Below are positions 844 to 21,701 of a stretch of DNA of 64,000 bases, piece by piece (within the stretch, counting starts at the first letter, position 1; each line of letters opens with the position of its first letter). Where the stretch lies: positions 57,101 through 121,100 of the forward strand of contig CAZTWS010000003.1 in assembly GCA_964618225.1 (NCBI GenBank). The letters run 5' to 3'. The notes under the pieces were generated by a model. The model did no database searches and had not been told where the DNA came from. It saw only the letters and a program-made list of their open reading frames with translations. The translations under genes and the position numbers were made by a program. The stretch is from an uncultured Planctomycetaceae bacterium (GTDB taxonomy: Bacteria; Planctomycetota; Planctomycetia; Pirellulales; Lacipirellulaceae).

Positions 844-3800
844 GCTTCAATGTGGCCGCGACTGATCTGCCGCGGAAAGCAACAAATGAAAGGGCTGCCA
901 ACATGCTGCGTCTGCTTCAATGTGGCCGCGACTGATCTGCCGCGGAAAGACTAAGGAATCTATAATAAATGAATTAAATATAGAAGCTTCAATGTGGCCG
1001 CGACTGATCTGCCGCGGAAAGACTCGTGGCCGCGTTACTGCTATTAGGGAGCTTACCGCTTCAATGTGGCCGCGACTGATCTGCCGCGGAAAGCCTCTTA
1101 CGGGCAGCGACTGCCCACCTGCAGGGACGCTTCAATGTGGCCGCGACTGATCTGCCGCGGAAAGCAGTTCGTCAACGAGCAGGGGGCCACGCTGCCGCTG
1201 GCTTCAATGTGGCCGCGACTGATCTGCCGCGGAAAGCTGCGCAGGTGCCGGTTGAGTGTTGCGGAACAGGCGGCTTCAATGTGGCCGCGACTGATCTGCC
1301 GCGGAAAGTGCCCCGTGATGCGAGCAAATTACATGGCGGGGAGGCTTCAATGTGGCCGCGACTGATCTGCCGCGGAAAGAGCCCACCGCCTACGTGGTTC
1401 TGAACCACGATTTCGCCCTTCAATGTGGCCGCGACTGATCTGCCGCGGAAAGCATAAACAATTTCCAGATGTGTGGCGATGGTTAGACCCTTCAATGTGG
1501 CCGCGACTGATCTGCCGCGGAAAGCCGACGTTCCGCTTCCTGCTCTTTGCGCTGCTGCTCCCTTCAATGTGGCCGCGACTGATCTGCCGCGGAAAGAAAA
1601 TTATGGAAGCAATCTGTACATACTTCACCTCCCTTCAATGTGGCCGCGACTGATCTGCCGCGGAAAGAGAGATTCGCTGATCGACCACGAGCTAGAGCAC
1701 CTTCCTTCAATGTGGCCGCGACTGATCTGCCGCGGAAAGACCGGATTTGGTTTACTCCACGCTGCTCGCGAATCCCCTTCAATGTGGCCGCGACTGATCT
1801 GCCGCGGAAAGTTGCGGAGCATTTAATCGGTAGTGCAAGTCCTGATGCCTTCAATGTGGCCGCGACTGATCTGCCGCGGAAAGACTTCCACCACCAGAAT
1901 TACCGGAAGAGGAAGAGGAGCCTTCAATGTGGCCGCGACTGATCTGCCGCGGAAAGGTCGAGATCATTCGTCAGGCGCAGTCGAATACAATCGCCTTCAA
2001 TGTGGCCGCGACTGATCTGCCGCGGAAAGCGATGCGATTATGGAAGCCCTAGGCATGACCTCTCCGCCTTCAATGTGGCCGCGACTGATCTGCCGCGGAA
2101 AGCCGGTAATGGCGTGGATGATTGGCAATACATCGGTCCTTCAATGTGGCCGCGACTGATCTGCCGCGGAAAGAACACATCAAGCACCTGCGGCAAGAAG
2201 AAGAGCGGACCTTCAATGTGGCCGCGACTGATCTGCCGCGGAAAGAAGTACAACGGCAGAACATCTAAAACAATCCGAGACACCTTCAATGTGGCCGCGA
2301 CTGATCTGCCGCGGAAAGTGCCGGTGGATACTTGGTTCCAACGCCGCTGGCTCCCTTCAATGTGGCCGCGACTGATCTGCCGCGGAAAGCTAACCCTGCC
2401 CGCTTTCCCAGTTTGGAAAACACCCCTCCTTCAATGTGGCCGCGACTGATCTGCCGCGGAAAGGAAATCGACGCTCTGCGTGCGGAGTTGGCCGAAGTGC
2501 CTTCAATGTGGCCGCGACTGATCTGCCGCGGAAAGCGTGGTAACAAATGTACGCCAGCGAAGAACGACGACCTTCAATGTGGCCGCGACTGATCTGCCGC
2601 GGAAAGGTGCGTTCGGCGGATAGCACCCTTACCACAGAAAGGCCTTCAATGTGGCCGCGACTGATCTGCCGCGGAAAGCATATTTGAACATCGGGTGGCG
2701 TTTCTCACCAAAGCCCTTCAATGTGGCCGCGACTGATCTGCCGCGGAAAGAGTAACTGCTAGGCAAGCAAAGAAGCTTAATATCGCTCCTTCAATGTGGC
2801 CGCGACTGATCTGCCGCGGAAAGCAAAATCGGCGGGGGGCTGGTTAGCCTCGGGGCATGCCTTCAATGTGGCCGCGACTGATCTGCCGCGGAAAGCCATT
2901 CCACTCCTTCTATACGTTCAGGCTTGTCGACCTTCAATGTGGCCGCGACTGATCTGCCGCGGAAAGCTGTGCCGCGTGCCGGCGTGGTGGAAGCAAGGGC
3001 CCCTTCAATGTGGCCGCGACTGATCTGCCGCGGAAAGGACGCTAAGCAGTATGGGCTCGACTTTGAGAGCGCCTCTTCAATGTGGCCGCGACTGATCTGC
3101 CGCGGAAAGGTTTTACGGTATAGCGCATCGCCAACCAATGGCATTTCTTCAATGTGGCCGCGACTGATCTGCCGCGGAAAGGTGAAGTCCTCGGACAGAA
3201 ACGAGAACGGCAAATCTCTTCAATGTGGCCGCGACTGATCTGCCGCGGAAAGATAGCCGCAAGAGCCTGCACTACATCTATACTCTGCTCTTCAATGTGG
3301 CCGCGACTGATCTGCCGCGGAAAGGACGCTGGACAGGCCCGATGGCCCCTCACCAGCAGGTCTTCAATGTGGCCGCGACTGATCTGCCGCGGAAAGGCCA
3401 AAGGTGAAGGAAGTCTGCTTTGGTGGAGTGATTCTTCAATGTGGCCGCGACTGATCTGCCGCGGAAAGACGAAGTCGCGAGCTGAACTGCGGCGCGCCAG
3501 CCGTCTTCAATGTGGCCGCGACTGATCTGCCGCGGAAAGGCCTTCGGCATTATAAGCATCGGGCGGAGAAAAGGTTGGTCTTCAATGTGGCCGCGACTGA
3601 TCTGCCGCGGAAAGCGTAGTTGATGGCCTACTCATTGCGTTAGCGGACCGGTCTTCAATGTGGCCGCGACTGATCTGCCGCGGAAAGATTCTTCGATTGT
3701 CCCCCGTATCTCCGCGCTCGCGAGTCTTCAATGTGGCCGCGACTGATCTGCCGCGGAAAGATTCGCGAAATGCGGTATCTACGCGAGAAATTCATGTCTT

Positions 3801-6800
3801 CAATGTGGCCGCGACTGATCTGCCGCGGAAAGCGAACTCAACTGTGAACCTATCGAGATTCAAAGCGTCTCTTCAATGTGGCCGCGACTGATCTGCCGCG
3901 GAAAGTGCTGCCCGTTTTCGCAAACGATTGCACTTCCGTGTCTTCAATGTGGCCGCGACTGATCTGCCGCGGAAAGCGTAGTTGATGGCCTACTCATTGC
4001 GTTAGCGGACCGGTCTTCAATGTGGCCGCGACTGATCTGCCGCGGAAAGCTGTGGTTCTCCTTTCAAGGGTTATGCAGGGAATCGCGCGGTCTTCAATGT
4101 GGCCGCGACTGATCTGCCGCGGAAAGGCATCCGTCACACTCAGAGGCTTCAACAAACGTATCGTCTTCAATGTGGCCGCGACTGATCTGCCGCGGAAAGG
4201 TAAGCCTCGGAAATGAACTTTCTCCAAGAATCTAGTTTCTTCAATGTGGCCGCGACTGATCTGCCGCGGAAAGGTCGGCGCGAGCAAGGATGCCGACACG
4301 ATCTTCAGTCTTCAATGTGGCCGCGACTGATCTGCCGCGGAAAGATGTACAAGGTGTGGTGGAGGTCAACACGCTATCGTCTTCAATGTGGCCGCGACTG
4401 ATCTGCCGCGGAAAGGTTCCGTAGTCGTATCCTGAGTCCTGGAGTTGAAATCGTCTTCAATGTGGCCGCGACTGATCTGCCGCGGAAAGTTATCGATGAA
4501 GAATGCGAAGCTATCAACCAGTTCGTCTTCAATGTGGCCGCGACTGATCTGCCGCGGAAAGGTAAAGTGGTACCGGCAATCCAAGCCTACGTTGACGATC
4601 TTCAATGTGGCCGCGACTGATCTGCCGCGGAAAGGTTTCTAAAAATGTCCAACATCTACCCGTTCTCCCTTCTTCAATGTGGCCGCGACTGATCTGCCGC
4701 GGAAAGCTCGCCGAGCTGCGTAGCATTGCCCACGTGCAAACCTCTTCAATGTGGCCGCGACTGATCTGCCGCGGAAAGCTGGAACAACAATGTCTGTCTT
4801 ATCTTCTAAAGATGATCTTCAATGTGGCCGCGACTGATCTGCCGCGGAAAGGCAAAACTCCGGGACAAAGTGGAAGATTTAGAAGATCTTCAATGTGGCC
4901 GCGACTGATCTGCCGCGGAAAGCCGTCCAGGTACGTCACGGGCCAGCGATCTGCGAAGTTCTTCAATGTGGCCGCGACTGATCTGCCGCGGAAAGTGCGC
5001 CCATCCACCGGCTTGCCCAGAATCCCCTAACTCTTCAATGTGGCCGCGACTGATCTGCCGCGGAAAGTGCCAAACGCGGTTGAATGGCGTCAACGAACTA
5101 CTGGTCTTCAATGTGGCCGCGACTGATCTGCCGCGGAAAGCGACCAAGCCGGTTTGAGACGACACGGCACGCTTAGTCTTCAATGTGGCCGCGACTGATC
5201 TGCCGCGGAAAGTGTTAACCCTTGCGTGCCCAGGGGGTTGCGTAGCAACTCTTCAATGTGGCCGCGACTGATCTGCCGCGGAAAGAACTGTAACCGACTG
5301 GGGCCCATCCTATTCCCCATTTCTTCAATGTGGCCGCGACTGATCTGCCGCGGAAAGTGCGGTCCAATAGCTGTGTGTCGCATGCCGTCGCTGTCTTCAA
5401 TGTGGCCGCGACTGATCTGCCGCGGAAAGCTGGCCAATTACTAATCGCTTGAATCCCATGTTAACGTCTTCAATGTGGCCGCGACTGATCTGCCGCGGAA
5501 AGCCCGCCAACTGAACCGGAGCGGCCTGTGTTTTCGCGTCTTCAATGTGGCCGCGACTGATCTGCCGCGGAAAGCAAATTGACGCAAGAGCAGGCTCGCC
5601 GGGAAGTTGTGTCTTCAATGTGGCCGCGACTGATCTGCCGCGGAAAGGGATAAAACGGCAGCAACAACGCTTTGCGGCTTACAGTCTTCAATGTGGCCGC
5701 GACTGATCTGCCGCGGAAAGGCTGAACTATCGGGAATCTACACGCTCGAAGAAATGTCTTCAATGTGGCCGCGACTGATCTGCCGCGGAAAGGATGGACT
5801 TGCTTTCGTCGAACACTCGACTGTTGGTCTTCAATGTGGCCGCGACTGATCTGCCGCGGAAAGATCCCCAGCATCATGGACGGCGGAGCCAATGCCGTCT
5901 CTTCAATGTGGCCGCGACTGATCTGCCGCGGAAAGCCCGTGATCACTTCCAAGTGAAACGGGCGGACGTAAGTCTTCAATGTGGCCGCGACTGATCTGCC
6001 GCGGAAAGGTCGAGCAGCCACACGAACGCCATCACCCCGACGACTGTCTTCAATGTGGCCGCGACTGATCTGCCGCGGAAAGGGCCGTGGCGATGGAAAG
6101 TATCAACTTCCATCGCCAGTCTTCAATGTGGCCGCGACTGATCTGCCGCGGAAAGGGTGCGAGCGAGGAGGAACTGCGGCACTTACTTGAGTCTTCAATG
6201 TGGCCGCGACTGATCTGCCGCGGAAAGAACGGTTGGCCAACTATCGCTATCGATCTCGTCGAATCTTCAATGTGGCCGCGACTGATCTGCCGCGGAAAGG
6301 GCGCAATGGTTTGGTGAGGCTTACTGGAACAAAGTTTCTTCAATGTGGCCGCGACTGATCTGCCGCGGAAAGCGCCAAACAGATCGGCATAAAGTTCCTT
6401 AACTACATTCTTCAATGTGGCCGCGACTGATCTGCCGCGGAAAGGTGTTGGCACCGAAAGGTGGCGGCGGAAGTGACCGTCTTCAATGTGGCCGCGACTG
6501 ATCTGCCGCGGAAAGCTTGTTTCACTAATATTTTTTGCAAATCTTCTTGAATCTTCAATGTGGCCGCGACTGATCTGCCGCGGAAAGAAAAAAGATAGTC
6601 TGGATTTTAATTCCCCCATCTGTCTTCAATGTGGCCGCGACTGATCTGCCGCGGAAAGGATCGTGCTGGCGACCCTTATTTCTTCATGGGTCTCGTCTTC
6701 AATGTGGCCGCGACTGATCTGCCGCGGAAAGGCAGATGCTCAACCCCCACCAGTTTCGCCGCCATCGTCTTCAATGTGGCCGCGACTGATCTGCCGCGGA

Positions 6801-9800
6801 AAGGATTGCCTTCCGTATCGAATTGAACATGCGGACTGTTTCTTCAATGTGGCCGCGACTGATCTGCCGCGGAAAGGCTACGGACTCAACAGCAAGTTGC
6901 GGAAGTGTTTGGGTCTTCAATGTGGCCGCGACTGATCTGCCGCGGAAAGCATCCTGATGTCGAAAAAGCCGCTGTTGTTATCGGGTCTTCAATGTGGCCG
7001 CGACTGATCTGCCGCGGAAAGCTGTGGTCCGTGGGAAGCGGTACCATTCCTATCCCCTCTTCAATGTGGCCGCGACTGATCTGCCGCGGAAAGCTCAGAA
7101 TGAAGGCGACGAATGATATAAGAAGAGAGTCTTCAATGTGGCCGCGACTGATCTGCCGCGGAAAGCTTTCATTGATGACCCTGAGGCCCTGAAGGGCTTC
7201 ATCTTCAATGTGGCCGCGACTGATCTGCCGCGGAAAGATCGCTTTGATGCTGGAGGGGATCATTGCTAAGTGCGTCTTCAATGTGGCCGCGACTGATCTG
7301 CCGCGGAAAGGCCGCACTTCGCCGCGCGTCTGCGATTGAGGCTGCTTCTTCAATGTGGCCGCGACTGATCTGCCGCGGAAAGGCCGACGATCCGCCATGT
7401 GCCACTTGCCGCGGAACTTTCTTCAATGTGGCCGCGACTGATCTGCCGCGGAAAGGCATCGAGCGAAGGTGCTCAACTCCCACTAGCTTCGTCTTCAATG
7501 TGGCCGCGACTGATCTGCCGCGGAAAGTGTGTCGGTAGATGGCCGTGTGCGGACCAGTAGCATCTTCAATGTGGCCGCGACTGATCTGCCGCGGAAAGAC
7601 TGCGTGGTACCCACGATGGAATGTGCGGACATCTCTTCAATGTGGCCGCGACTGATCTGCCGCGGAAAGGAGCTGTAGTCCCGGATGTCACAGGACTCAT
7701 GGATTCTTCAATGTGGCCGCGACTGATCTGCCGCGGAAAGCGCCCTGGAATTCTCGCTGGAATGGCCCCGCCGCGCTCTTCAATGTGGCCGCGACTGATC
7801 TGCCGCGGAAAGCACTGCCAATGGGTAGAGCGTTGGCGAGAGCGGTCAAACTTCAATGTGGCCGCGACTGATCTGCCGCGGAAAGAAACATATGAAAAAC
7901 ACGAAGGTTCTCCGGGTTTAACACTTCAATGTGGCCGCGACTGATCTGCCGCGGAAAGATTCGCTCGCTGGGATTCGATCCAGCCAATCCAATTACTTCA
8001 ATGTGGCCGCGACTGATCTGCCGCGGAAAGAAGCCGCTAAGCGCCAAGACCGCGAACTCAACGAAACTTCAATGTGGCCGCGACTGATCTGCCGCGGAAA
8101 GCACCCGGACCTCCGTTGTACATAGCAATGTCACGATTACTTCAATGTGGCCGCGACTGATCTGCCGCGGAAAGGCAGACTGCGAAGTAATTGCCTCCGA
8201 GTGTTCCCAACTTCAATGTGGCCGCGACTGATCTGCCGCGGAAAGATGGTTTTCATAGTTAAAAAACAGTGCGGCGATTAGACTTCAATGTGGCCGCGAC
8301 TGATCTGCCGCGGAAAGGGTAAGAGAGTTGCGCCGCCGTCCGCGTGTGGAATGACTTCAATGTGGCCGCGACTGATCTGCCGCGGAAAGATCCGCGCCGT
8401 GTCACGGTCCGAGCTACGCACGCTCACTTCAATGTGGCCGCGACTGATCTGCCGCGGAAAGGCGCGGCCCTCGTAGCATGTTCCGCCCGTGAGACACACT
8501 TCAATGTGGCCGCGACTGATCTGCCGCGGAAAGGCGATATGCGGCCAACATGGGTCACGATCAATGCCAAACTTCAATGTGGCCGCGACTGATCTGCCGC
8601 GGAAAGCGCAGTGCAGACACAGCTTAACGTCGGTGCGGTCGAACTTCAATGTGGCCGCGACTGATCTGCCGCGGAAAGCGCCACCCCGATAAGCTGCTGC
8701 TTTCGGATTTGATCGTACTTCAATGTGGCCGCGACTGATCTGCCGCGGAAAGCTACCAGAACGACAAAGGCGAAGCATTGATTTCAATACTTCAATGTGG
8801 CCGCGACTGATCTGCCGCGGAAAGGCCCCGACATCGCTTATTCGTTGCTCCTGGAGGGGCCACTTCAATGTGGCCGCGACTGATCTGCCGCGGAAAGCTA
8901 CACCATCGACTTCCTCACGCATTTGCACATGTTACTACTTCAATGTGGCCGCGACTGATCTGCCGCGGAAAGAATTACGTGGCTTTCCGTGGATCGCTGT
9001 AGCGTTGCACTTCAATGTGGCCGCGACTGATCTGCCGCGGAAAGAAGACTCGGCGCAGAACACCAAGAAAGCGTTATTGACTTCAATGTGGCCGCGACTG
9101 ATCTGCCGCGGAAAGTATTCCACCGTGACTCCCGCAGGATCAATCCCCGGTGACTTCAATGTGGCCGCGACTGATCTGCCGCGGAAAGGTAATAGCGGCG
9201 TGGTGTTTGTGCGCGTGTCTGAAAACTTCAATGTGGCCGCGACTGATCTGCCGCGGAAAGGTTATGAGCCTCGCCGAGATGTTTGTTGACGACCGTACTT
9301 CAATGTGGCCGCGACTGATCTGCCGCGGAAAGACCTCCCGTTTGTGCGGTGGAAGATCAAGCCGCCAACACTTCAATGTGGCCGCGACTGATCTGCCGCG
9401 GAAAGGGAATGATTTGTGTTGCCATTGGTTATTCAAACAGAGCACTTCAATGTGGCCGCGACTGATCTGCCGCGGAAAGGTGATAGCAGCCGCAACACCA
9501 GACGCGACGACTAAGACTTCAATGTGGCCGCGACTGATCTGCCGCGGAAAGTGATACTTGCCATCAATTACCGCGTCTCTGAATTGACTTCAATGTGGCC
9601 GCGACTGATCTGCCGCGGAAAGCCGGGAACGCGTTGCCACCAGCCATTACGCAATGCGACTTCAATGTGGCCGCGACTGATCTGCCGCGGAAAGACCTCG
9701 TCGGTATGCGGATGCGTTTTCTACCCGCTCACTTCAATGTGGCCGCGACTGATCTGCCGCGGAAAGGGTTCGAGGACCACGTCAGCGATTTGCTGATCTT

Positions 9801-12800
9801 CACTTCAATGTGGCCGCGACTGATCTGCCGCGGAAAGGCGCTCAGCCAAATAGGCTGCTTGGCGGTCGTCAACACTTCAATGTGGCCGCGACTGATCTGC
9901 CGCGGAAAGAAGCCCTACAAAAGTTCGCTGCAACCGGCGAAGTGACTTCAATGTGGCCGCGACTGATCTGCCGCGGAAAGGCGCCGATCCCGACTCGCTA
10001 CCCAAAGTCAAAGAGTTACTTCAATGTGGCCGCGACTGATCTGCCGCGGAAAGGTGGTGTGCAACAAATGCTGCACCGCATGGTTATTACTTCAATGTGG
10101 CCGCGACTGATCTGCCGCGGAAAGGCGCTCTTGCACCCACAGTTTCCAGTAGTCCGCGTCACTTCAATGTGGCCGCGACTGATCTGCCGCGGAAAGCTCC
10201 TCCGGATACGCCATCCCCGTTGCCGTCCGACCCACTTCAATGTGGCCGCGACTGATCTGCCGCGGAAAGCCTGGTCGACCCATTGGCCATGCCCCAATGC
10301 AGGCCCGACTTCAATGTGGCCGCGACTGATCTGCCGCGGAAAGCGCAATGGTTTGGTGAGGCTTACTGGAACAAAGTTGAACTTCAATGTGGCCGCGACT
10401 GATCTGCCGCGGAAAGCGCCCGGTGAACCAGGAGGGGGAGCCGGGCGTTTGGACTTCAATGTGGCCGCGACTGATCTGCCGCGGAAAGCAAGGTAGCCCC
10501 AAACGGGTCCACGTGTCCAGGACACTTCAATGTGGCCGCGACTGATCTGCCGCGGAAAGCTGCCAGGTGGTGAGGCTGCCCTTGCTGCCGAAAAAACTTC
10601 AATGTGGCCGCGACTGATCTGCCGCGGAAAGAAATTACGGCAACCACACTGGCTACCAACAGGTGTTACTTCAATGTGGCCGCGACTGATCTGCCGCGGA
10701 AAGCCTTTTATTTACAAAAGGATTTATATGACCAGCAAACTTCAATGTGGCCGCGACTGATCTGCCGCGGAAAGTCAAACCAACGGTTGAAGAAGTCACC
10801 GCCTACTGCACCACTTCAATGTGGCCGCGACTGATCTGCCGCGGAAAGGATGCGCCACCACGCAGGGGGGGTGGTTTTTTTCCAAGCACTTCAATGTGGC
10901 CGCGACTGATCTGCCGCGGAAAGCCACCCCCATATCGCAATGGGCCGTGGGGTAGTGCTACTTCAATGTGGCCGCGACTGATCTGCCGCGGAAAGACGTG
11001 CCATCTACGGCATCCCGATTAAAACCGACTTTGACTTCAATGTGGCCGCGACTGATCTGCCGCGGAAAGGCTGCGGGCGGTATCCGGGTGCGACGCCAGG
11101 CCATTACTTCAATGTGGCCGCGACTGATCTGCCGCGGAAAGAGGGCCTGCCGTTCACCTTCTGGGTTGTTCGTGCTGACTTCAATGTGGCCGCGACTGAT
11201 CTGCCGCGGAAAGAGGCGTTGTTTCCTTAACATCGACATTGCTAGCTCCTAACTTCAATGTGGCCGCGACTGATCTGCCGCGGAAAGTGGGTGGAGTCTT
11301 CGAGAACGGCACCTTTACTGAAGACTTCAATGTGGCCGCGACTGATCTGCCGCGGAAAGGAAAATCATTCGCACAATTTATGCTTGACGCAAAAAAGACT
11401 TCAATGTGGCCGCGACTGATCTGCCGCGGAAAGCGATTTATGATACGGGTTTAAATTGCTGGGATCATCACTTCAATGTGGCCGCGACTGATCTGCCGCG
11501 GAAAGAGCTCATAAACACCTCCTCCACTCTATATAACAATACTTCAATGTGGCCGCGACTGATCTGCCGCGGAAAGTCGTGTCATGGTGAGCGATCCCCG
11601 ACCAATCGAGCACTTCAATGTGGCCGCGACTGATCTGCCGCGGAAAGCCAGCACTGCTGATCCATGGAGAATTAGTTCCGATAAACTTCAATGTGGCCGC
11701 GACTGATCTGCCGCGGAAAGCTTCATTGCTCCATGGCAAGACACCGCCCTCAGCGTACTTCAATGTGGCCGCGACTGATCTGCCGCGGAAAGTTCCATCT
11801 CCTCTCGGCGCTCGACTGCAGCACCTGACTTCAATGTGGCCGCGACTGATCTGCCGCGGAAAGGTAGGTTTGCGACAGATTCAACGCGCGGCTAAGCTCT
11901 ACTTCAATGTGGCCGCGACTGATCTGCCGCGGAAAGACTTCTAGCGTCCACTGTGTACGGACATTTTTAGGGCACTTCAATGTGGCCGCGACTGATCTGC
12001 CGCGGAAAGTTGCCGATGCCGTGTCATTGGACGATGCCAGAGATACTTCAATGTGGCCGCGACTGATCTGCCGCGGAAAGGGTTAGACACCCTCGACTCA
12101 GTTGTTATTGTGACTACTTCAATGTGGCCGCGACTGATCTGCCGCGGAAAGGCCGCCTCCCACGAGCAGTAGAACCGTCACCGAAAGACTTCAATGTGGC
12201 CGCGACTGATCTGCCGCGGAAAGCAATTGGGCAATGGTGGTAGCTCATGTTCATCACTTTCACTTCAATGTGGCCGCGACTGATCTGCCGCGGAAAGGTG
12301 GCCTCAGTCGGGTGGCCGTCGATTTGTCAGCAAACTTCAATGTGGCCGCGACTGATCTGCCGCGGAAAGGCACATGCCTTGAGATGCGCTAAGTTGCGAG
12401 TGTCGACTTCAATGTGGCCGCGACTGATCTGCCGCGGAAAGCCAGAGAAGTAAAGCAAACCCAAGTCACCCTTGCGACTTCAATGTGGCCGCGACTGATC
12501 TGCCGCGGAAAGGTCGTAGCCGCAGTGAATCACCTCGAACCTGTCCAGACTTCAATGTGGCCGCGACTGATCTGCCGCGGAAAGGGCCAAGGCAGCTTGA
12601 GTTCTTTCGATGGCCATGATTCACTTCAATGTGGCCGCGACTGATCTGCCGCGGAAAGGGAAGCTGATCATTGGCGGTGACAAAGCGGACAAACTTCAAT
12701 GTGGCCGCGACTGATCTGCCGCGGAAAGTCCTCGGACCTGATATGACCCATCATGGAAAGGTAACTTCAATGTGGCCGCGACTGATCTGCCGCGGAAAGG

Positions 12801-13233
12801 CTCCAAACAAGAGGGGAAGCTCGCCCGGCATGTAAGACTTCAATGTGGCCGCGACTGATCTGCCGCGGAAAGATACCGCCACTCGGCTTTGTACCCCGCA
12901 CCGTCCGGACTTCAATGTGGCCGCGACTGATCTGCCGCGGAAAGATCCGGTCTGGTGGCTAGGCTTGGCATATCGGACCAACTTCAATGTGGCCGCGACT
13001 GATCTGCCGCGGAAAGGTCCGCGAAGATTACATGCGGGACGAGTGCCAGCGCGACTTCAATGTGGCCGCGACTGATCTGCCGCGGAAAGCGAGCGGCTAA
13101 TGAAGACGGGCCGCAAATGGTTCGAACTTCAATGTGGCCGCGACTGATCTGCCGCGGAAAGCTCCACCCCTTGGCGACTTCCAGCCAATAGGTGTTCACT
13201 TCAATGTGGCCGCGACTGATCTGCCGCGGAAAG
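844..13233 (-). CRISPR. CRISPR array with 172 direct repeats of 36 nt and 171 spacers of 34-41 nt. Repeat on the minus strand is 5'-CTTTCCGCGGCAGATCAGTCGCGGCCACATTGAAGN-3'.
   Basis: I located every CTTCAATGTGGCCGCGACTGATCTGCCGCGGAAAG core by hand, from the first at 845 to the last at 13199-13233, with a period of 70-77 nt. No core mismatch was seen. The minus-strand orientation is inferred from the ATTGAAG-type 3' end typical of type I repeats and from co-orientation with the cas operon. The repeat has an internal 5-bp CCGCG/CGCGG stem. Confidence 0.97.
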
Positions 13234-13449: not shown

Positions 13450-15225
13450 CTATCGAGTAACGAAGACCGGATACGAGGCGATTTCCCCGGTCAATACTCG
13501 GGCCAGCAATCGGGCTTGAATCTCCAACAGCCGACGATAATTCACACGATACCCAAACAATGGATGCGTGACTAGAGTATCCATTCGTTGTTCATACGCT
13601 CTAAAAAACGACTTACGGCCCTCTGGCCGCAGCGCCACGGCGTCGCCGGTGCGGATGAAGTCGGCCGGCGTGATCATACGTGTATTGATCGCCGACAGCA
13701 CTGCGGAATCCGCGATCAATGGTCGAAACGGCTCCATGAGATCGAGGGCGAGCGCTGCCCGACCGAAACGTGGCTGATGGTAGAATCCAAGAAATGGATC
13801 GAAGCCGACCGCGTGGCAGACGATCGTTAGGTCCTTTGCCAACACACTGTAAGCCAACGATAGTAAAGCATTCACGGCATCGCGCGGCGGGCGACGATTG
13901 CGGCGGAGAAAATCGAACGTGAACTCGGCGGCACCGTTGGCCGGTGTGCCGTCCGCCGCTTCGGCCTTAATCATGCCCGCGAAGTTCTCGAAGTAGATCT
14001 TGGCTGCGAAGCCCTCGATGCCCAGCAATTCTTCGATCGATGAAGCGCGCTCGGAATCCTGTTGCATGCACTTTAACAGGGCGATTGGATGAGCGGGCGG
14101 CTCAACATGATTTCGCTGCAACATGGTGCGTTGATTGCGAATCTTTCCAGACACCAACATGCGAGCTAGTCGCAGGCAAAACGATGGCACATCGGCTAGT
14201 CGAAATTGATCGCGACGCAAATAAATATTGCGGACACCAAGGCCATGAGTCACTCCGTAAAACCAACCGCCCATCGAAAAGTACGCGATCGGTACTTCAC
14301 CTTCACACAATGCCTGAACAGCCTGCGTGGAGAGCTGAATGTTGCCGAATAGATTGACCTGGCAGGTTTCGCCAATACGCACCTCCTGGACAACCTTTTC
14401 TTTCTCCTTCACTTTCAGCACGTTGCCGGACTTACCAACGTATAGGCCCTGAGCATTCAAATACAGTGGCCTCAAATCGTCGCGGGCAGCAACCAACCGG
14501 CGCGGCTCATGACCGTTTTCTATGCCGGCATTGGAGGACAGCCCTATGTCGAATAGCACTCGTTGCGGCGATTGGCCGGCAACGGTGCCAGCCGAGCGAC
14601 AACTCCACGTTTCATCAGGCAGACAAATCCCGACGAGCGAACAACGCGGGCATTTGGGACTGTCAACGAGCGGCGGTGGGATTTGATCGGATGCGGCCGC
14701 TGCCCGGGCGTCGGCCAGGGCTTGCAAGGTTTGCGAGATCATTGCCTCGTCCATCGGCACGCGCACTCGCTGCTTGGTCGCGACATAATAGATGACTCCT
14801 TCTTCGCAGGTGTAGCCATTATCGCGCAACACCAGCGCCTGTGCGGCTAACTGTACGCGGTCCGCGTCCCAAGCTTCGAGCTCTCCGGTATCGGAATTCT
14901 TTCGCGGTGCGCCACGTTTATAATCTACCGGAGTGGCCGTGCGATCCGAAACTTCGATCAGGTCGAGCTTCGCAATCAAACCGTGCGTATCGCTCGAAAG
15001 CGTGACCGATCGTGAGTGAAGCTTGTCTTCGGCGGAGAGCTCAGCGGCCGGCACCAACTCGTCCTGTCGGTCGTCGAGCTTCGCATGCCGCAGCGCGCCT
15101 TCGGTGGTTTCGCGATTATGGACAAATACGCCTTCGACCCACTCGTAGTAAAACAGCCGAGGGCAGTAAACGTACTCATTAAGCATTCGTGCCGGCAGAT
15201 AGTCTGGCGTTTCGGCTTTGATCAT
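13450..15225 (-). CDS. cas4-cas1: Cas4-Cas1 fusion protein (adaptation integrase with N-terminal RecB-type Cas4 nuclease)
   Basis: 591 aa. The N-terminus has YVYCPRLFYYEW plus a C-terminal Cys cluster CPRCSLVGIC (Cas4 Fe-S cluster pattern). The C-terminal ~380 aa shows Cas1-like blocks (IRNQRTMLQRN, RRNRRPPRDAVNALLSLAYSVL, LGFYHQPRFGRAALALDLMEPFRP). This fusion is a hallmark of type I-U/I-G. Confidence 0.93.
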   Translation of the reverse strand: MIKAETPDYLPARMLNEYVYCPRLFYYEWVEGVFVHNRETTEGALRHAKLDDRQDELVPAAELSAEDKLHSRSVTLSSDTHGLIAKLDLIEVSDRTATPVDYKRGAPRKNSDTGELEAWDADRVQLAAQALVLRDNGYTCEEGVIYYVATKQRVRVPMDEAMISQTLQALADARAAAASDQIPPPLVDSPKCPRCSLVGICLPDETWSCRSAGTVAGQSPQRVLFDIGLSSNAGIENGHEPRRLVAARDDLRPLYLNAQGLYVGKSGNVLKVKEKEKVVQEVRIGETCQVNLFGNIQLSTQAVQALCEGEVPIAYFSMGGWFYGVTHGLGVRNIYLRRDQFRLADVPSFCLRLARMLVSGKIRNQRTMLQRNHVEPPAHPIALLKCMQQDSERASSIEELLGIEGFAAKIYFENFAGMIKAEAADGTPANGAAEFTFDFLRRNRRPPRDAVNALLSLAYSVLAKDLTIVCHAVGFDPFLGFYHQPRFGRAALALDLMEPFRPLIADSAVLSAINTRMITPADFIRTGDAVALRPEGRKSFFRAYEQRMDTLVTHPLFGYRVNYRRLLEIQARLLARVLTGEIASYPVFVTR

Positions 15226-15313: not shown

Positions 15314-15604
15314 TCAAACGACAATGCACGGCGCATTGATCGGCGAATAAGGTTGCCCAAGCGCGGCAATCACGCGCTCGCCGCGACCTTCGGTCGGCCC
15401 AAGGTCGACGAACAGCACTTGGTCTTCGTTGTGCTTGATGATCTCAGAAAGCGTATGCCGACATCGCGCCAAATCGATCGGCGTAAACTGGCACTCGAAA
15501 ATGGAGTACTGCAAGTGGTCGCCAAAATCGCGCATGGTCTTGTAGACCTTGCGAAGACGTTTGTCGTTGCGGATGTCGTAGCAGACAAGAAAAGTGTTTC
15601 GCAT
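15314..15604 (-). CDS. cas2: Cas2
   Basis: 96 aa. FLVCYDIRNDKRLRKVYKTMRDFGDHLQYSIFEC matches the canonical Cas2 N-terminal beta-alpha pattern. It lies next to cas4-cas1. Confidence 0.9.
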   Translation of the reverse strand: MRNTFLVCYDIRNDKRLRKVYKTMRDFGDHLQYSIFECQFTPIDLARCRHTLSEIIKHNEDQVLFVDLGPTEGRGERVIAALGQPYSPINAPCIVV

Positions 15605-15887: not shown

Positions 15888-17441
15888 TTATGGACCTACC
15901 CGTTCCACCGCCGCCATCAGGCCGAAGCCACAATGGCGACCGGCGCCGAGAGCCAAAGGGCCGGGGACCTGCAATCCATCGTTGAATCGCAATGTCAAAT
16001 GAACTGCCGTTTGATTGAGCAAATAGCCGGGGCGAATGTAACCCGTTGGTCGCCCCTGTCGATCGTATTTGTGGGCAGAGAACGATTTTGGAAATCTCGA
16101 AAAGGCGTTCCATTCAAATTCGCATGGTTGCTCGAGGCCGGACTGTTGCAAGGCTTTGCGGATGAGCGACCGGGTCTTCTCGGGCTTGTGGTCGTCGTGG
16201 CCAGGAAGGATGACTGGCGTCACGCTTGCCCAAGTGGCCGAAGTACGGAGATACCCGGCGCGGACACCGTCCCGGCGATGGTCGTCGATGCGTTCGAGGT
16301 GCGTGCCCGGCGGAAGCGTCGTGTTGGGTAGGGGGTTGAGGAGCGCGCCGTCGATCTGGCGTGCAAGATGTTCGAGCCAGGTGTCGTCGCCGAGAGGCGC
16401 AACGATCATAACGCGGCGAACGCCGGGGTCAGTGTTGGGATTGCCAATCGACTGCAGCGGAATGTAGGAAAACTGTGTGTGCGGAATCCCTTGCGATTTG
16501 TCCTGCGGCGACTGGTGCCCCGACACGTACGCGCGAAGCCACTCGGCCGAGTTTCGCCCGCACAATTCTCGCGGTGGATTGCGCTCCATCGCCCCAATCG
16601 CCAGATGACGAACCATTCCGGCGATGTGGATGAGCTTGGATGGGGGATAGGAAACGGTGTCGTCATTTTCGTCAATGAGCTTGAAAACTGCGTGGGGACG
16701 GGGAGCGGGATCGCTGTCGTGGCGGTAACAAATCTGATCCATCGCGCTCAACGGAGGAACGGGCGTCCAGTCGCCGTTGATCAAGCGATTGAGGAACTTG
16801 TCATGTCGCGCAGTAAGGGCGTCGAGCGAGCCATTGCGATGAACGCGAAGTCGCCTGCCGCCGCGCGGCGTGGGCATCCATCTCTCGCCGTTGGGTTGCC
16901 TTGATGCAGACTCGACAAGCGTTGCGTCCGCGATGACCTGATCGATCCCCCACCCGAGGCAGTGGATCGAGCGGGCGGAGGGGCGAATAGCATTCAGTAA
17001 TTCGGTCGGATCGGCATTGGTTGCGTCGAGTAGGTATAGGTAGTGGATTGCGGGGAGTTCGTCGCCGATAGTTTCAATAAGGTGTGGGCGGAAATCCTTT
17101 TCGATACGGTGAGAGGCAATGCTGGCATCGGCATTGCCACGGTTCCAGGCGGCCGTCACGAGGTCGGTCTGATTATGAGGCACGTACGCGCGATGACCGA
17201 TAGTGCTGAGAGTGGCGCGCGGCGCAATGATAGAAGGCCGCAACACTTCGAGCGTTTGAAGGGCCGATCGCACGTCGGGCGGCAGAGGCTTGCCGCGCAT
17301 GCACAGACAGGCGGCGTTGAGCAGCGCCTGAAACGCCCGCATCGGCGACGGCGGCCATTCGGGGTCGTCACCGTCGGCGCGGCCATGATAAACAGGATAT
17401 GGCTGGATGAAGCGGAAGCTGATGCAGAGAATATTCGACAT
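15888..17441 (-). CDS. csb2: Csb2 family protein (type I-U/I-G Cas5u-Cas6u fusion)
   Basis: 517 aa. The N-terminal block ISFRF..YHGR....EWPPSPMRAFQALLNAA resembles the Csb2 signature (EWPPSP.R...AL). There is a C-terminal glycine-rich RAMP loop LGAGRHCGFGLM. The start lies 2 nt after the csb1 stop, with GGAG inside the csb1 end. Confidence 0.8.
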   Translation of the reverse strand: MSNILCISFRFIQPYPVYHGRADGDDPEWPPSPMRAFQALLNAACLCMRGKPLPPDVRSALQTLEVLRPSIIAPRATLSTIGHRAYVPHNQTDLVTAAWNRGNADASIASHRIEKDFRPHLIETIGDELPAIHYLYLLDATNADPTELLNAIRPSARSIHCLGWGIDQVIADATLVESASRQPNGERWMPTPRGGRRLRVHRNGSLDALTARHDKFLNRLINGDWTPVPPLSAMDQICYRHDSDPAPRPHAVFKLIDENDDTVSYPPSKLIHIAGMVRHLAIGAMERNPPRELCGRNSAEWLRAYVSGHQSPQDKSQGIPHTQFSYIPLQSIGNPNTDPGVRRVMIVAPLGDDTWLEHLARQIDGALLNPLPNTTLPPGTHLERIDDHRRDGVRAGYLRTSATWASVTPVILPGHDDHKPEKTRSLIRKALQQSGLEQPCEFEWNAFSRFPKSFSAHKYDRQGRPTGYIRPGYLLNQTAVHLTLRFNDGLQVPGPLALGAGRHCGFGLMAAVERVGP

Positions 17442-17443
17442 GA

Positions 17444-18610
17444 TTACTCCGGCTTGGGTTCCGCGGCAGCCTTGGCAGTCTTCTTACGCGTCGCCTTCAC
17501 GTCGCCTTCACCAGTGATGTCTTTCTTCGCAAGGTTGGAGTCGAACTTCACCGATTGTGCTTCGCCGATGCCGAATTCCTTCGCTGCCTGCTTAGCAAAA
17601 GCAATGGCCTGTTCGTGCGTGAGGTTAAAATCCTCGCGCGAGCCATCGGCATTGACCAGCGTGACCTTGCGCGGGTTGTTGATATCTGGCACCAAATTGC
17701 AGCCTTGGCGGAGATACGCCTGCGGCGGTGCGGTGAGTGCGACGAGTGAAAGGCCAAGCACGTACCTGCGGAGTGCAAGGTTTTGTTTTGCGTCGTCGCC
17801 TGCCGAGAGCAAGCGGAGAGCGGCGAGACTGAGAGTAACGTCGCGACGGATGCCGCCATTGGCGATCACGCCACCGTGGGAGCCAGTCGCAGGAACATGA
17901 ATGAAGCCGCGTTCGGCATAAGCGTCTTTGGTCTTTTTGTCAGCCGTGTCTTCTAACAATCCGAGCCCGATATAGTCGGCCGACGGATTAAACTGTGCGG
18001 AACGTGTCAGCTTCTGGACGTTAAATGCGCGAATCGTTGACGCAACAAGGCGAGGTAGTTTGGCCTGCGTGTCGCGCGAATCCCACGCGCCGAAGACTAG
18101 CGAAGTTGGGGCTACCTTCGCCATCTGGAGCGCGTTGCCTTGCAGCACAGCTTTGAACGCGTCTTGTAGAGTCTTCTGGAGCGGCGTGCAACGGACAATC
18201 GCATCGCCCGCGCGGTGGCCGGCTTCGAGCAAATTCACAGACTTTTCGCCGGCGGTGATCACAACCTGCGGCACGAGGCCCGCATACTCCGGCTTGGCAA
18301 AGATGGGCTCGATACGATTGGCTTGCGAACCAACGCTATCAACAAGGCAGACGTTCCTTTCGCTGATCTTCGCCTCTACCGTGACTTTCTTGGACCCATC
18401 TTTATCAACCTCGACGATAGTCGTTGTTGTCTCCGGCGGCGGGTCAATATTGTACCCGCCCGGAAACACCTTCTTGTCCTCAGCAGCGGCAAAGGTTGCG
18501 GGAAAGATTACCCCGTCCGCGCCTTCGACGGGCACGAGCGGCTCACGGATGACGATCGCGGCAGTGAAGTCGCTCGTTAGCCAATTGTCGTACTTGTTCA
18601 GGTCACTCAT
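17444..18610 (-). CDS. csb1: Csb1 family protein (type I-U/I-G Cas7u backbone subunit)
   Basis: 389 aa counted from the internal ATG at 18610 (MSDLNKYDNW...), which is preceded by GGAGAA. The longer track ORF starting at 18703 overlaps the upstream gene. The LVPVEGADGVIFPATFA block and the position between the Cas8u-like gene and csb2 fit Csb1. Confidence 0.8.
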   Translation of the reverse strand: MSDLNKYDNWLTSDFTAAIVIREPLVPVEGADGVIFPATFAAAEDKKVFPGGYNIDPPPETTTTIVEVDKDGSKKVTVEAKISERNVCLVDSVGSQANRIEPIFAKPEYAGLVPQVVITAGEKSVNLLEAGHRAGDAIVRCTPLQKTLQDAFKAVLQGNALQMAKVAPTSLVFGAWDSRDTQAKLPRLVASTIRAFNVQKLTRSAQFNPSADYIGLGLLEDTADKKTKDAYAERGFIHVPATGSHGGVIANGGIRRDVTLSLAALRLLSAGDDAKQNLALRRYVLGLSLVALTAPPQAYLRQGCNLVPDINNPRKVTLVNADGSREDFNLTHEQAIAFAKQAAKEFGIGEAQSVKFDSNLAKKDITGEGDVKATRKKTAKAAAEPKPE

Positions 18611-19487
18611 TACGTTCTCCTTGGAATGGAATAGCAGGCAAGAAATTTTTGAGGTATTTGGTTCGATAGAGCAATTTGAACTCCTGCAACAATTCATCGC
18701 CAATGTCTATCGCGCCGCATGCGACTGCCGACGCGACGGATGGCGACAATGGACAGCGCCAGGCAGCGTACACGAAGCGGTTTTCTCGCGGAATCTCGCG
18801 CGGACGGAATCGTTGAAGCCCGATGAAGCAGAGGAACTCAAGGGCAGGTTTGCAAGTGCCTTCAATACGCGTCGCTTCACTGCCCGCAAGTGGATCAAAG
18901 CTGAAGCCAATGTCGAGCGCTGAGCCTTGCCCGCCAAGATCGGAATCGAAGTTGAACGGCAGACCGATGCCGCGTGCGTTACTCCACAGCGATGAATCGG
19001 ATTCGCTTATCGTACCAGCCATTCCGCGATGCATGGCTCTGGCAATATCCAACACGGACTGCTGCCCCGCCCATGTCTTGAATCGGGATCCGCCAGCAAA
19101 CTCGTCGCAAAACCAGTCGATGAGAAACGAGACGGTGCCAGTGAGTATGATCGGCAATTCACGACGGAGCGATTCAAGCAACTTCTTTTCGTTTTCCAGA
19201 CCAAGCACCGCTTCACGCTGTTTTTTCTTCATTGCCGATAATTCTTCGAGCCGCGCGTTTTGCACCGGTGTCATCGTGTTGACTACGGTGGATTCCGTGA
19301 GCGCTTTTAGCAGCGTGGATAGCGAACATTCCTGAGGGCCTGAGATCAGAAAGTGGTCGTCATTAAACCACCCCTCCGCCCCCCGCCACAGCCGATCCGC
19401 CAACTCCAACAACCCGCAGCAGGCGAAGAACTGGCCGGGGTTGGTCAGGTCGACGGGGACCCTAATGTTGGGTTCCTTGTTGCTCAT
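18603..19487 (-). CDS. Small Cas8u-class large-subunit candidate (Csb3-like), 294 aa
   Basis: I place the start at ATG 19487 (MSNKEPNIRVPVDLTNPGQFFACCGLLELADRLW), preceded by GGGAGG. It overlaps the upstream stop as ATGA. The NPGQFFACCGLLELADRLW block is what I recall for the Csb3 family, and the gene sits in the slot normally held by Csx17/Cas8u2. The family assignment is not verified. Confidence 0.55.
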   Translation of the reverse strand: MSNKEPNIRVPVDLTNPGQFFACCGLLELADRLWRGAEGWFNDDHFLISGPQECSLSTLLKALTESTVVNTMTPVQNARLEELSAMKKKQREAVLGLENEKKLLESLRRELPIILTGTVSFLIDWFCDEFAGGSRFKTWAGQQSVLDIARAMHRGMAGTISESDSSLWSNARGIGLPFNFDSDLGGQGSALDIGFSFDPLAGSEATRIEGTCKPALEFLCFIGLQRFRPREIPRENRFVYAAWRCPLSPSVASAVACGAIDIGDELLQEFKLLYRTKYLKNFLPAIPFQGERNE

Positions 19488-20533
19488 TTTGCGCCTCCCT
19501 CTTCGGCCTTCGCGCTGGCGGCCCAGTCGGCGGTACGGACAAGGGATTCGAAGTAGGCTAGGCCCCACCGGCCATACTTTCGCTGGAGGCGGGCGAAGCG
19601 TCTTAGGACTTCGAGTGGCTGTTGACTTGCTGATTCTCCGCAGTGATTGTCGTCGAGACATTCATCCGGTGTGAAATGCGGCCGCGCCCGACCGTGGTGC
19701 GCGGAAATCAGGTGCAGAACCAGCTCGCGTGAATCGTCTGAGAGAGCTTTGAATGCCGGAAGGGTTTGGATGTCCAGCATCGATCCGAATTCGTGCCGGT
19801 ATGTTGAGCGTTCAATCCTTCCGCGTCGCTTGCCTGACTTAGCCCACGCCTTGGTCTGGGGATAGCCGGTATTGCCGATGCCACGCTGCCATCGCTCGCG
19901 TTCCTTGCCCAGATCGTGAAACTCCGCCGCGAGGATGACGGCTTTGCGTAATTCTGGGTCGAGAGAAAGTCCCAACACGAACTGTGTTGCCTCTTTTTTT
20001 GCGTCGCTTAGGTGTGGGACCAGTTCGTAGTGGGGCTTTCTACTTCGGGCATCGGTGTCGGCTGCCAAGATGCGGACGAACCAATGCCACATCCTGATCG
20101 GCTCGCTCTCTTCATCGTCAGTATCTGTCAATACGATCTGGGAGACGAGCTTCATCTTGGTGGGCGGATCAACTTCGTCTTCTGGCATCTTCCATTGACG
20201 TTCCCGCATTGGGCCCTTGTCGTCAGACCACTGATCAGAAACGTCATCATCGATAGCGGCAGGTGGCTCACCTTGTTTGGGTGACGGCGGAAAATCACCA
20301 TCGAGCATGCCTTGCTTGGTCAGTCCGCCGATGTCATGCGGAAGCAAGATAGTTTTGCTTCGGAGTCGCGATTCGGCCTGTTTGTTCTCCCAATTCGTGA
20401 GTTCTGCTATATGAGGCAGAACTTCGACCTCGCCCTGCTCATCTACAATCCACGCGGGCCGTTTCGGATGTCGCGCGGCCAGCTTGACGAACTCCTTCCA
20501 TACCACATGTGCGACGCCGAGGCGCGACGCCAC
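19484..20533 (-). CDS. cas3: Cas3 HD-nuclease domain protein without a helicase domain (C-terminal part of a type I-G Cas3, or a stand-alone Cas3'')
   Basis: 349 aa with a GTG start. The C-terminal ~180 aa carries the ordered HD motifs: VPHLSD, FHDLGK, YRHEFGS, SAHHGR, RTADWAAS. No Walker A / DEAD / helicase motifs are present. The reading frame is closed by a stop only 5 codons upstream (TAG at 20549-20551). Confidence 0.75.
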   Translation of the reverse strand: MASRLGVAHVVWKEFVKLAARHPKRPAWIVDEQGEVEVLPHIAELTNWENKQAESRLRSKTILLPHDIGGLTKQGMLDGDFPPSPKQGEPPAAIDDDVSDQWSDDKGPMRERQWKMPEDEVDPPTKMKLVSQIVLTDTDDEESEPIRMWHWFVRILAADTDARSRKPHYELVPHLSDAKKEATQFVLGLSLDPELRKAVILAAEFHDLGKERERWQRGIGNTGYPQTKAWAKSGKRRGRIERSTYRHEFGSMLDIQTLPAFKALSDDSRELVLHLISAHHGRARPHFTPDECLDDNHCGESASQQPLEVLRRFARLQRKYGRWGLAYFESLVRTADWAASAKAEEGGAK

Positions 20534-20651
20534 ATGGAAGGCTTGGATCTATTGGGAAATGCCGGCCAGCGGGTCACCGGCTCGTAAATGCCCCGCAATA
20601 ACTTGATTGGAGGACGTTCGGGCCGCCGAGAGATACGGCACCAATCCGCTC

Positions 20652-20689
20652 GATTGACCCAGTCATTGACTCAGTCGACTGGGTCAATC
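20652..20689. repeat. Three abutting 12-13 bp sites, ATTGAC(C/T)CAGTC in direct, direct, inverted order
   Basis: GATTGACCCAGTC (20652-20664), ATTGACTCAGTC (20665-20676) and GACTGGGTCAATC (20677-20689). The outer pair is a perfect 13-bp inverted repeat. The element lies between the tRNA 3' end and the cas operon start. Confidence 0.6.
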
Positions 20690-20747
20690 AAAAGCGTCAA
20701 CGCAACTAGCTGAAAAATCAGTACTTGCGATGACGGTGAGAAAGAAA

Positions 20748-20829
20748 GCGGAGGGCATGGGACTCGAACCCACAACCGGTTTCCCGGCACCACATTTCCA
20801 GTGTGGCCGCTAGCCATTCGCTTACCCTC
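20748..20829 (-). tRNA. tRNA-Ser(GGA)-like gene, class II with a long variable arm and no encoded CCA
   Basis: Folded by hand. The 7-bp acceptor is GGAGGGT/GCCCTCC. The anticodon stem is CCACA/TGTGG with loop CTGGAAA (anticodon GGA). The variable arm is CCGG-GAAA-CCGG. The T arm is GTGGG-TTCGAGT-CCCAT. The D stem pairs poorly (2 canonical pairs), so tRNAscan confirmation is needed. Confidence 0.7.
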
Positions 20830-21145
20830 CGAATGGAAGACTTAAGTCCTTATCTTAACACCATTTGGGCCGATGTCTACCGCAAGCCTCCCTACCGCTG
20901 TTTGCCGCAACGACACTTGGATTAACGCCTATTTGCAGTCCTGTGCGATTGAGGGACCGGCTCGATTCGCACGACCATCACCAACGCAATCCGTGAACAC
21001 GAACGGCACTGCTCGCACGGGGCTTTGCGGCAGCCACACTAGGCATCGAAAAATCCCAACCGCAGCAGCCACCTAGCGCTCAACAACACAAGCGTACGCG
21101 CACCGACAAAGAAGAGGATAAGAAGTTAAGTGAGTGGTGTGTGAG

Positions 21146-21310
21146 TGTCCGGGAATTCAACTCCTGTGGAGCCGTAGGAGGTTAACCGCGTGTGCCTCAA
21201 ACGCCTGTGACACACCTTTACGCGTCATTCCCGCGCAGGCTTGCCTTCACGCAGGCGGGGGCGGGAATTGACGACAGCGCGTAGCGTGCCATCTCGAATT
21301 CCCGGACACC
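21146..21310. repeat. Nested inverted-repeat element of about 165 bp
   Basis: The outer arms are a perfect 14-bp inverted repeat: GTGTCCGGGAATTC (21146-21159) and GAATTCCCGGACAC (21297-21310). The inner arms are imperfect: CGTCATTCCCGC (21224-21235) and GCGGGAATTGACG (21262-21274). Confidence 0.55.
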
Positions 21311-21593
21311 CTCAAAGCAAATCCGAGCAACCGGCAGCCATCCACGCGCTTAGCAGTCCACGTCACGCTCCTCCAAGCCAGCGGGATCGATCTCCGCACA
21401 TGCGCTGCGCATGCACATTAAAATTCCCTCCCAGGACAAAAAGCATGCAGACACTTCGACGCCCACCAACACACGATGCAGAACTTTTGCAAACAGCGAA
21501 AGCTCCCTTAAAACAGCCGCAACCCCCACAATGACGGTTATTCACCCCAAGTTACTTTGCGAAAAAACGAGAAAAAACTGCGCACAATTTCAT

Positions 21594-21621
21594 TTGCGTG
21601 GCTGACTACGCGGGTTATTCT
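21594..21621 (+). promoter_or_regulatory. Putative sigma70-type promoter (TTGCGT-N16-TATTCT) inside a conserved ~90-bp upstream module (21543-21632)
   Basis: The hexamers and their spacing are conserved with the 28292-28319 copy. The element lies about 80 nt upstream of ATG 21702. Confidence 0.4.
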
Positions 21622-21701
21622 GAAGATTAGGGCCATTTCGGTTGGAGCTCCCGCCGTAGCGGCTTATCCAGACAAATCCTGCATCGAGGGTGGAGAATCT
21701 A

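Follow-up and report, generated by a model that had tools for sequence, protein, structure and literature searches.

A type I-G cas3 gene apparently cut down to its HD nuclease end beside a tRNA-Ser gene in an uncultured planctomycete

Type I CRISPR-Cas systems are known in several degraded or Cas3-less forms, including orphan arrays, cas pseudogenes, the transposon-associated I-F3 and I-B systems, and type IV; in the co-opted systems, cas3 is wholly lost and the remaining genes are tied to transposition or to other partner genes. In type I-G (formerly I-U), the closest described nucleases are the Cas3g proteins of Geobacter (GSU0051, family TIGR02621) and Thioalkalivibrio sulfidiphilus, which possess an N-terminal superfamily 2 (SF2) helicase core (RecA1, RecA2, Walker A/B) and a C-terminal HD nuclease region. 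In type I-A and some I-B systems, the HD domain forms a stand-alone protein without a helicase, Cas3'' (TIGR01596), encoded by a conserved separate gene that is paired with a cas3' helicase gene. Here, we analyse the window, a 64-kb stretch of contig CAZTWS010000003.1 from an uncultured Planctomycetaceae bacterium, in which a type I-G locus that looks complete lies on the minus strand and begins with a cas3 open reading frame (ORF) of 349 amino acids (aa). Judged by its homology, the ORF is a 5'-truncated cas3g that retains the last 38% of the normal gene. We take it, with a probability of roughly 0.8, for what is left, at the 3' end, of a type I-G cas3g that was once full length, produced by ordinary gene decay and not by a helicase-free design. 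The ORF and the two segments distinguished within it are listed below.

19484..20533, minus strand: the 349-aa cas3 ORF, with a GTG start, first gene of the operon.
19484..20503, minus strand: 3' remnant of cas3g, equivalent to residues 557–897 of the Cas3 of the relative L004 and comprising the pre-HD region and the complete HD nuclease domain.
20504..20533, minus strand: ORF codons 1–10 (VASRLGVAHV), assigned to junction DNA, with the GTG at 20533 and a second in-frame GTG at 20506–20504.

A preliminary description of this DNA had presented the ORF as an intact HD-only gene with its HD motifs in the C-terminal half and no helicase motifs. Its length, strand, GTG start, and motif positions are borne out by the ORF call and by an alignment with 34 full-length homologues, in which the residues H174, H206-D207, H247, H279-H280, and D336 are all present and 65 of the 68 columns conserved in at least 90% of the full-length homologues are kept. 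The match to TIGR02621 is limited to model positions 547–854 of 854 and scores 182.7 bits, so that the curated whole-protein cutoff for Cas3g (400 bits) is not reached. The protein also matches Cas3_HD (PF18019) and TIGR01596, barely passing the domain cutoff of the latter (44.4 vs. 43.45 bits). Simultaneously, profile searches with DEAD, ResIII, and Helicase_C give zero matches in the 349-aa protein, and the N-terminal SF2 helicase core is thus lacking. In a search of 1.84 billion representative proteins, the full-length relatives, typically 860–940 aa long, align to the ORF via their residues ~540–880. Furthermore, the remnant is collinear with the 3' part of the L004 cas3 up to the cas8g start (79% aa and 82% nucleotide identity), making it orthologous by descent to full-length Cas3g. 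A normally stand-alone family unrelated to Cas3, which the preliminary description had considered, can be set aside: the protein matches Cas3g and its relatives are full length.

The two closest relatives place the breakpoint at a single base. L004, a Planctomycetaceae metagenome-assembled genome, encodes a cas3 product of 897 aa with 79% aa identity to the ORF, and L005 encodes one of 925 aa with 64% identity; both proteins carry ResIII/DEAD, Helicase_C/Cas3-like_C_2, and HD domains. In blastn comparisons with the window, the L004 alignment (82% nucleotide identity) and the L005 alignment (71%) both start at exactly base 20503, and the L004 DNA is ~92% identical immediately past this base on the cas3 side, with no identity upstream. 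At the protein level, ORF residue 11 aligns with residue 557 of L004 Cas3, and the match to the TIGR02621 model begins at position 547. Residues 1–10 show no homology to any Cas3g or to the L004 and L005 DNA upstream of 20503; the ORF start lies where the cas3 reading frame stays open by chance for ten codons into the junction DNA. The in-frame TAG, described earlier as five codons upstream, is located six codons upstream of the GTG at 20533, with five codons between them. "Intact" is consequently a misleading label for the ORF, because codons 1–10 are not cas3 sequence, and the earlier impression of an undecayed ORF holds for its body, where the motifs are kept and the ratio of nonsynonymous to synonymous substitution (dN/dS) is 0.19, but not for its 5' end, which is junction DNA. 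The junction is also found in a contig of the Logan assembly of run SRR16798009, which is independent of the window assembly; this contig is 100% identical over 1345 nt, a stretch that begins within the tRNA gene, crosses the junction, includes the full ORF, and reaches cas8g.

In the AlphaFold2 model of L004 Cas3 (mean predicted local distance difference test score, pLDDT, 83), which resembles solved Cas3 and SF2 helicase structures, the breakpoint residue 557 is situated inside a helix (residues 554–567, pLDDT ~94). The low-confidence linker of the model comprises residues 473–505, away from the breakpoint. In this predicted structure, the breakpoint is therefore not where a designed split would be expected. 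No solved I-G Cas3 structure for the interface with Cas8g was retrieved by sequence search. Separately, L004 carries the 5' sequence of cas8g (window 19475–19379) twice, at 10001–11094 and 11829–11925 of its contig, ~735 nt apart, which suggests that its cas8g region, close to the contig end, contains an insertion or duplication. Proteins resembling Cas3g–Cas8g fusions form three clusters (P0138, P0213, and P0253; 1165–1232 aa) and are collinear with window positions 20503–18624, spanning the cas3 remnant as well as cas8g.

The missing half was searched for in the window and in a collection of 5.8 billion proteins, which includes the gene calls of this assembly. With 81 full-length Cas3g proteins as tblastn queries, no match to the helicase part (the N-terminal ~540 residues) is found in the 64 kb, the best spurious hit having E > 0.02. 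Neither a helicase-like ORF nor a long minus-strand ORF exists beyond the tRNA gene in the window, in agreement with the preliminary description. With residues 1–540 of L004 Cas3 as the query, the protein collection contains no stand-alone helicase half more than 70% identical besides L004 itself; the best match after L004 has 70% identity, and the top matches are all near-full-length Cas3g proteins from other samples.

Other I-G loci were inspected for the same architecture. A first protein search returned short proteins only; targets longer than ~1.75 times the query appear to be excluded from its list, and the full-length protein with 79% identity is absent from its results. A natural family of HD-only homologues was considered and rejected, most such proteins being contig-edge fragments or products of frameshifted long-read assemblies with helicase sequence directly upstream. 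The survey comprised 80 metagenomic I-G loci, ~60 of them with enough upstream DNA to judge. Helicase-coding sequence, intact or frameshifted, precedes the HD region in all of these ~60, none being HD-only, and in one of them (L072) homology begins only at residue ~210. Seven further I-G loci from genomes carry a full-length cas3. Wherever cas3 is frameshifted or split elsewhere, the helicase part always lies immediately upstream, whether in a different frame or beyond a stop codon. In L013, an in-frame TAA followed by a GTG one codon later (5990–6005) occurs at the position equivalent to the window breakpoint. This leaves two adjoining ORFs, 573 and 335 aa long, the upstream one encoding the helicase; the interruption could be either a nonsense mutation or a genuine split gene. 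The locus L018 was considered as a second independent truncation and set aside as ambiguous: it has 109 nt of upstream sequence only, and faint similarity runs on across an in-frame TAG. In addition, extra partial cas3 5' ends (residues ~4–168) are found just upstream of an intact full-length cas3 in L052 (2242–2781), L080 (2272–2517), and L097 (2790–3038). These extra copies mirror the 5' loss in the window and hint at recurrent rearrangement at the heads of I-G operons.

The DNA on the far side of the breakpoint contains the following features.

20504..20747: non-cas3 junction segment of 244 nt, from the tRNA 3' end to the breakpoint.
20748..20830, minus strand: tRNA-Ser(GGA), identified by ARAGORN and by Rfam (RF00005, 34 bits, E = 1.2e-4).
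20852..20879, minus strand: sigma-70-like promoter match, TAGACA-16-TAAGAT with TG, a putative promoter from a consensus scan, close in front of the tRNA gene.

The tRNA gene and the cas operon are cooriented, and the 3' end of the tRNA gene points toward the cas3 remnant at a distance of 214 nt from the GTG, where a gap of about 215 bp to a tRNA-Ser-like gene had been reported. The 244-nt segment has no match in Rfam, in phages, in plasmids, or in the fetched loci, and at least its tRNA-proximal part is probably the native flank of the tRNA gene. As minus-strand RNA, the segment is predicted to fold with −97.9 kcal/mol (z = −4.8). A first hairpin (~20695–20735), followed by a U-rich run, stands directly after the tRNA and may be its terminator. 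A second hairpin (~20649–20692) is built on a perfect 11-bp inverted repeat read from the sequence, TTGACCCAGTC ... GACTGGGTCAA, which sits within four alternating TTGAC[C/G/T]C motifs; a repeat finder reports an overlapping 16-nt palindrome, 94% complementary, at 20665–20688. The inverted repeat at 20649–20692 could be an operator-like or recombination-site-like element. The promoter match at 20852..20879 is the sole promoter-like site near the truncated operon head, and the consensus scan finds no minus-strand promoter-like site within 20504..20747.

The preliminary description had listed, among three options without a choice between them, a recent deletion of the helicase half at an island boundary. 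The deletion is supported by the homology that stops at 20503 and by relatives of 897 and 925 aa, but nothing in the window marks the site as an island boundary. A second copy of the 24-nt tRNA 3' end, as would be expected of an attachment (att) site, is absent from the window even with up to 3 mismatches allowed; the 64-kb window holds no integrase or transposase; and no step in GC content or other compositional break exists at the junction. In several unrelated I-G loci, a cooriented tRNA gene (Ser, Leu, or Arg) is located 0.9–2.5 kb upstream of cas3, at 1940–2024 in L063, 513–597 in L065, 652–736 in L028, 1934–2009 in L080, and 739–815 in L046/L048. A tRNA-adjacent position is therefore not unusual for type I-G, and I-G loci may tend toward such sites. 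Upstream of the tRNA gene in the window, ~860 nt (20831–21690) contain no convincing ORF, and a 24-nt imperfect inverted repeat is present there at 21135–21158 and 21296–21319.

Downstream of the cas3 remnant, the operon and the array are arranged as follows.

18603..19487, minus strand: cas8g2 (GSU0052/Csx17 family), 294 aa from the ATG at 19487; TIGR04106, 289 bits, full model coverage.
17444..18703, minus strand: cas7g (csb1, GSU0053 family); PF09617, 5e-37; TIGR02570, 7.5e-45.
15888..17441, minus strand: csb2 (Cas5–Cas6 fusion, GSU0054 family); TIGR02165, 230 bits, positions 2–492 of 492; PF09609.
15314..15604, minus strand: cas2, upstream of cas4-cas1; PF09827, 5.1e-19.
13450..15225, minus strand: cas4-cas1 fusion (Cas4g/Cas1g); NF049935, 751 bits, positions 1–546 of 546.
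13234–13449: leader of ~215 nt between cas4-cas1 and the array.
844..13233, transcribed from the minus strand: CRISPR array of 172 repeats and 171 spacers, the repeat ending in ...ATTGAAGN.

TIGR02165, TIGR02570, TIGR04106, NF049935, and PF09827 all score above their cutoffs and the array is adjacent, which places the locus in type I-G. The cas3 stop codon overlaps the cas8g start in an ATGA at 19484–19487; this overlap and the 171-spacer array had both been reported and are real. An identical 294-aa Cas8g protein is already called as a gene in public data. According to Pfam scans of 35 large ORFs, the remainder of the window consists of ordinary planctomycete genes for housekeeping and surface proteins, among them peptidoglycan-recycling enzymes, glycosidases, and proteins of the DUF1559 and PEP-CTERM kinds, with no helicase. 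Past the oldest repeats of the array, the first 843 nt of the window (1–843) are AT-richer (48% GC).

Within the array, a 34-nt core is identical in 172 of 172 repeats. The nucleotide at the boundary of repeat and spacer (plus strand) falls into four unbroken blocks: G in the 8 oldest repeats, C in 23, T in 66, and A in the 75 on the leader side. The repeats have thus undergone three successive changes, all at one boundary position and none at other positions, which suggests slippage of the boundary at spacer integration rather than random mutation. Two pairs of spacers are duplicated with 100% identity, 3615–3651 with 3977–4013 and 6300–6336 with 10344–10380, the latter pair ~4 kb apart. A self-targeting spacer as a motive for the loss of cas3 was tried and rejected: comparison of the spacers with the non-array part of the 64 kb yields chance 11–16-mers only.

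The state of the remnant bears on the age of the truncation. Compared with L004, the remnant has dN = 0.114 and dS = 0.615, without a region of relaxed constraint, and its reading frame is free of stop codons; each of the other cas genes spans the full length of its family model. Since the HD residues are kept, no excess of amino-acid change is observed, and neither the array nor any other cas gene is damaged, the truncation is probably recent relative to the divergence from L004. The dN/dS and intactness data do not separate a recent truncation from a fragment still under selection.

In the explanation that we prefer, a deletion or other rearrangement would have fused the interior of cas3 to a point 244 bp past the 3' end of tRNA-Ser(GGA), with the breakpoint between 20504 and 20503, corresponding to codon ~557 of a gene of ~900 codons. 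Approximately 1.67 kb coding for both RecA-like helicase domains and the inter-domain linker would have been lost, together with any promoter before cas3, and the junction DNA would by chance have provided the apparent GTG start and codons 1–10. The ~1.67-kb loss and the join at 20504/20503 emerge directly from the sequence comparisons. Because the helicase is missing, canonical Cas3 helicase-driven processive degradation is impossible at this locus. Transcription of the operon may continue, for instance through tRNA read-through or an internal promoter. In that case, Csb2, Cas7, and Cas8g could still make and hold CRISPR RNA, and Cas4-Cas1 and Cas2 could go on adding spacers. For interference, loss or severe weakening is the most likely outcome.

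Several points weigh against decay as the explanation. A fragment still in use would account equally well for the open ORF, the kept HD site, the coupling through ATGA, and the perfect array of 171 spacers, and type I-G immunity in E. coli is independent of Cas3 helicase activity (PMC10482374). L018 and the contig encoding P0073 may also start an I-G operon with an HD-only cas3. The search for the helicase half spans the window and the protein collection, not the complete genome, which is absent from the GTDB species representatives that were scanned. Finally, no same-species relative shows the ancestral state at tRNA-Ser(GGA), so that a deletion in place and the acquisition of an already truncated locus look alike.

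The rival that survives best, although we consider it unlikely, is a working helicase-less effector, in which the translated HD-only fragment attaches to Cascade via Cas8g and introduces a nick into the displaced R-loop strand, the nick suffices for immunity, and the locus is under selection. The kept HD motifs and conserved columns and the low dN/dS are what such selection would leave, but an equally low ratio is expected from a recent truncation. The T. sulfidiphilus I-G Cas3 is a stable subunit of Cascade, bound through Cas8g (PMC9638904), and protection against plasmid and phage persists in its helicase-dead variants K39A and D164A (PMC10482374). These published mutants, however, keep the whole helicase body and say nothing on the binding or positioning of a fragment, and the break in the window removes part of a confidently folded region (residues ~506–556 of L004 Cas3). 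Translational coupling to cas8g and the intactness of the other cas genes and the array would suit a functional gene, whereas it is junction sequence that happens to provide the start codon and residues 1–10, and no promoter-like site precedes the ORF. The natural Cas3g–Cas8g fusions place the HD end beside Cas8g, and the two possible HD-only cases just mentioned would add company; against this, the architecture is unique to this genome, its nearest relatives are full length, and the survey of judgeable loci returned no HD-only example. The helicase-less variant offered in the preliminary description is accordingly unsupported as a family and unlikely at this single locus. A more specific form, a natural I-G effector without the helicase body whose HD-only fragment on Cas8g nicks the R-loop for defence or spacer upkeep, we hold to be slightly more doubtful still.

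Very unlikely, in our estimate, is a split cas3'/cas3'' arrangement, also among the options listed earlier, in which the helicase gene would lie at another place in the genome, either by design or through a rearrangement, and its product would act in trans as in type I-A. Split Cas3 does exist in type I-A (PMC10482374, discussion), and L013 shows the stop and GTG restart at the same point of cas3, but there the helicase ORF is directly upstream, as is the helicase part in all frameshifted or split cases elsewhere. Inspection was confined to the 64-kb window, not the whole genome, which leaves space for a distant partner; neither the window nor the 5.8 billion proteins yielded one, the latter holding nothing more than 70% identical to the L004 helicase half besides L004. 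Moreover, the break falls within a helix and not in a domain linker, the start codon belongs to the junction DNA, and none of the relatives shows such a split. An assembly or binning artefact, in which a mis-join near the tRNA gene hides ~1.7 kb of helicase-coding sequence (about 2 kb as first proposed), is scarcely credible: the source looks like a metagenome-type assembly and tRNA genes are classic mis-join sites, but the break lies 244 nt from the tRNA and not at it, the junction has no compositional step, and the Logan contig reproduces it at 100% identity.

Taken as decay, the locus is an example of a CRISPR-Cas system in which the interference nuclease-helicase is disabled while the array and the genes for effector and adaptation functions are still pristine, and offers a dated snapshot of the loss of a type I system beginning beside a tRNA gene. 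It also carries a caveat for annotation, since public data call the ORF as a normal 349-aa protein although its "start" is junction DNA. If the fragment were active, it would represent a natural minimal nickase module for I-G Cascade, relevant to helicase-deficient I-G genome editing, and HD-only nicking would give the engineered helicase-dead I-G Cas3 a counterpart in nature.

Compared with the Cas3 of GSU0051 and T. sulfidiphilus, the window ORF shares the orthologous C-terminal HD nuclease region (182.7 bits), the same place at the head of a cas8g-cas7g-csb2 operon, and the same ATGA-type coupling to cas8g. It differs in lacking the N-terminal ~556 residues with both RecA-like domains and Walker A/B, in remaining below the 400-bit cutoff, and in its unrelated first 10 residues. 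With the stand-alone Cas3'' of type I-A and some I-B systems, it shares an HD domain without a helicase. True Cas3'' is paired with a cas3' helicase gene, whereas no partner of the window ORF is found in the 64 kb or the protein collection; furthermore, the relatives of the ORF are fused full-length or frameshifted genes, and ~160 residues of Cas3g-specific pre-HD sequence are retained. As in the Cas3-less derivatives of type I, a Cascade-type effector and an array persist in the window without a functional Cas3 helicase-nuclease, but, unlike the co-opted systems, the window has no such partner genes and retains an HD fragment. The helicase-dead T. sulfidiphilus Cas3 (K39A, D164A; Shangguan & White 2023, PMC10482374) likewise possesses an HD nuclease without helicase activity, and nicking alone gave immunity and short deletions (PMC10482374). 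Those point mutants keep the full helicase fold and its contacts, whereas the window ORF, known from its sequence alone, is physically without 62% of the protein. The locus is thus a member of type I-G whose ORF lacks two defining features of Cas3g, the helicase core and a score above the cutoff, and is not of the Cas3'' type; the event, a cas operon in partial decay, is of a known kind at a new site.

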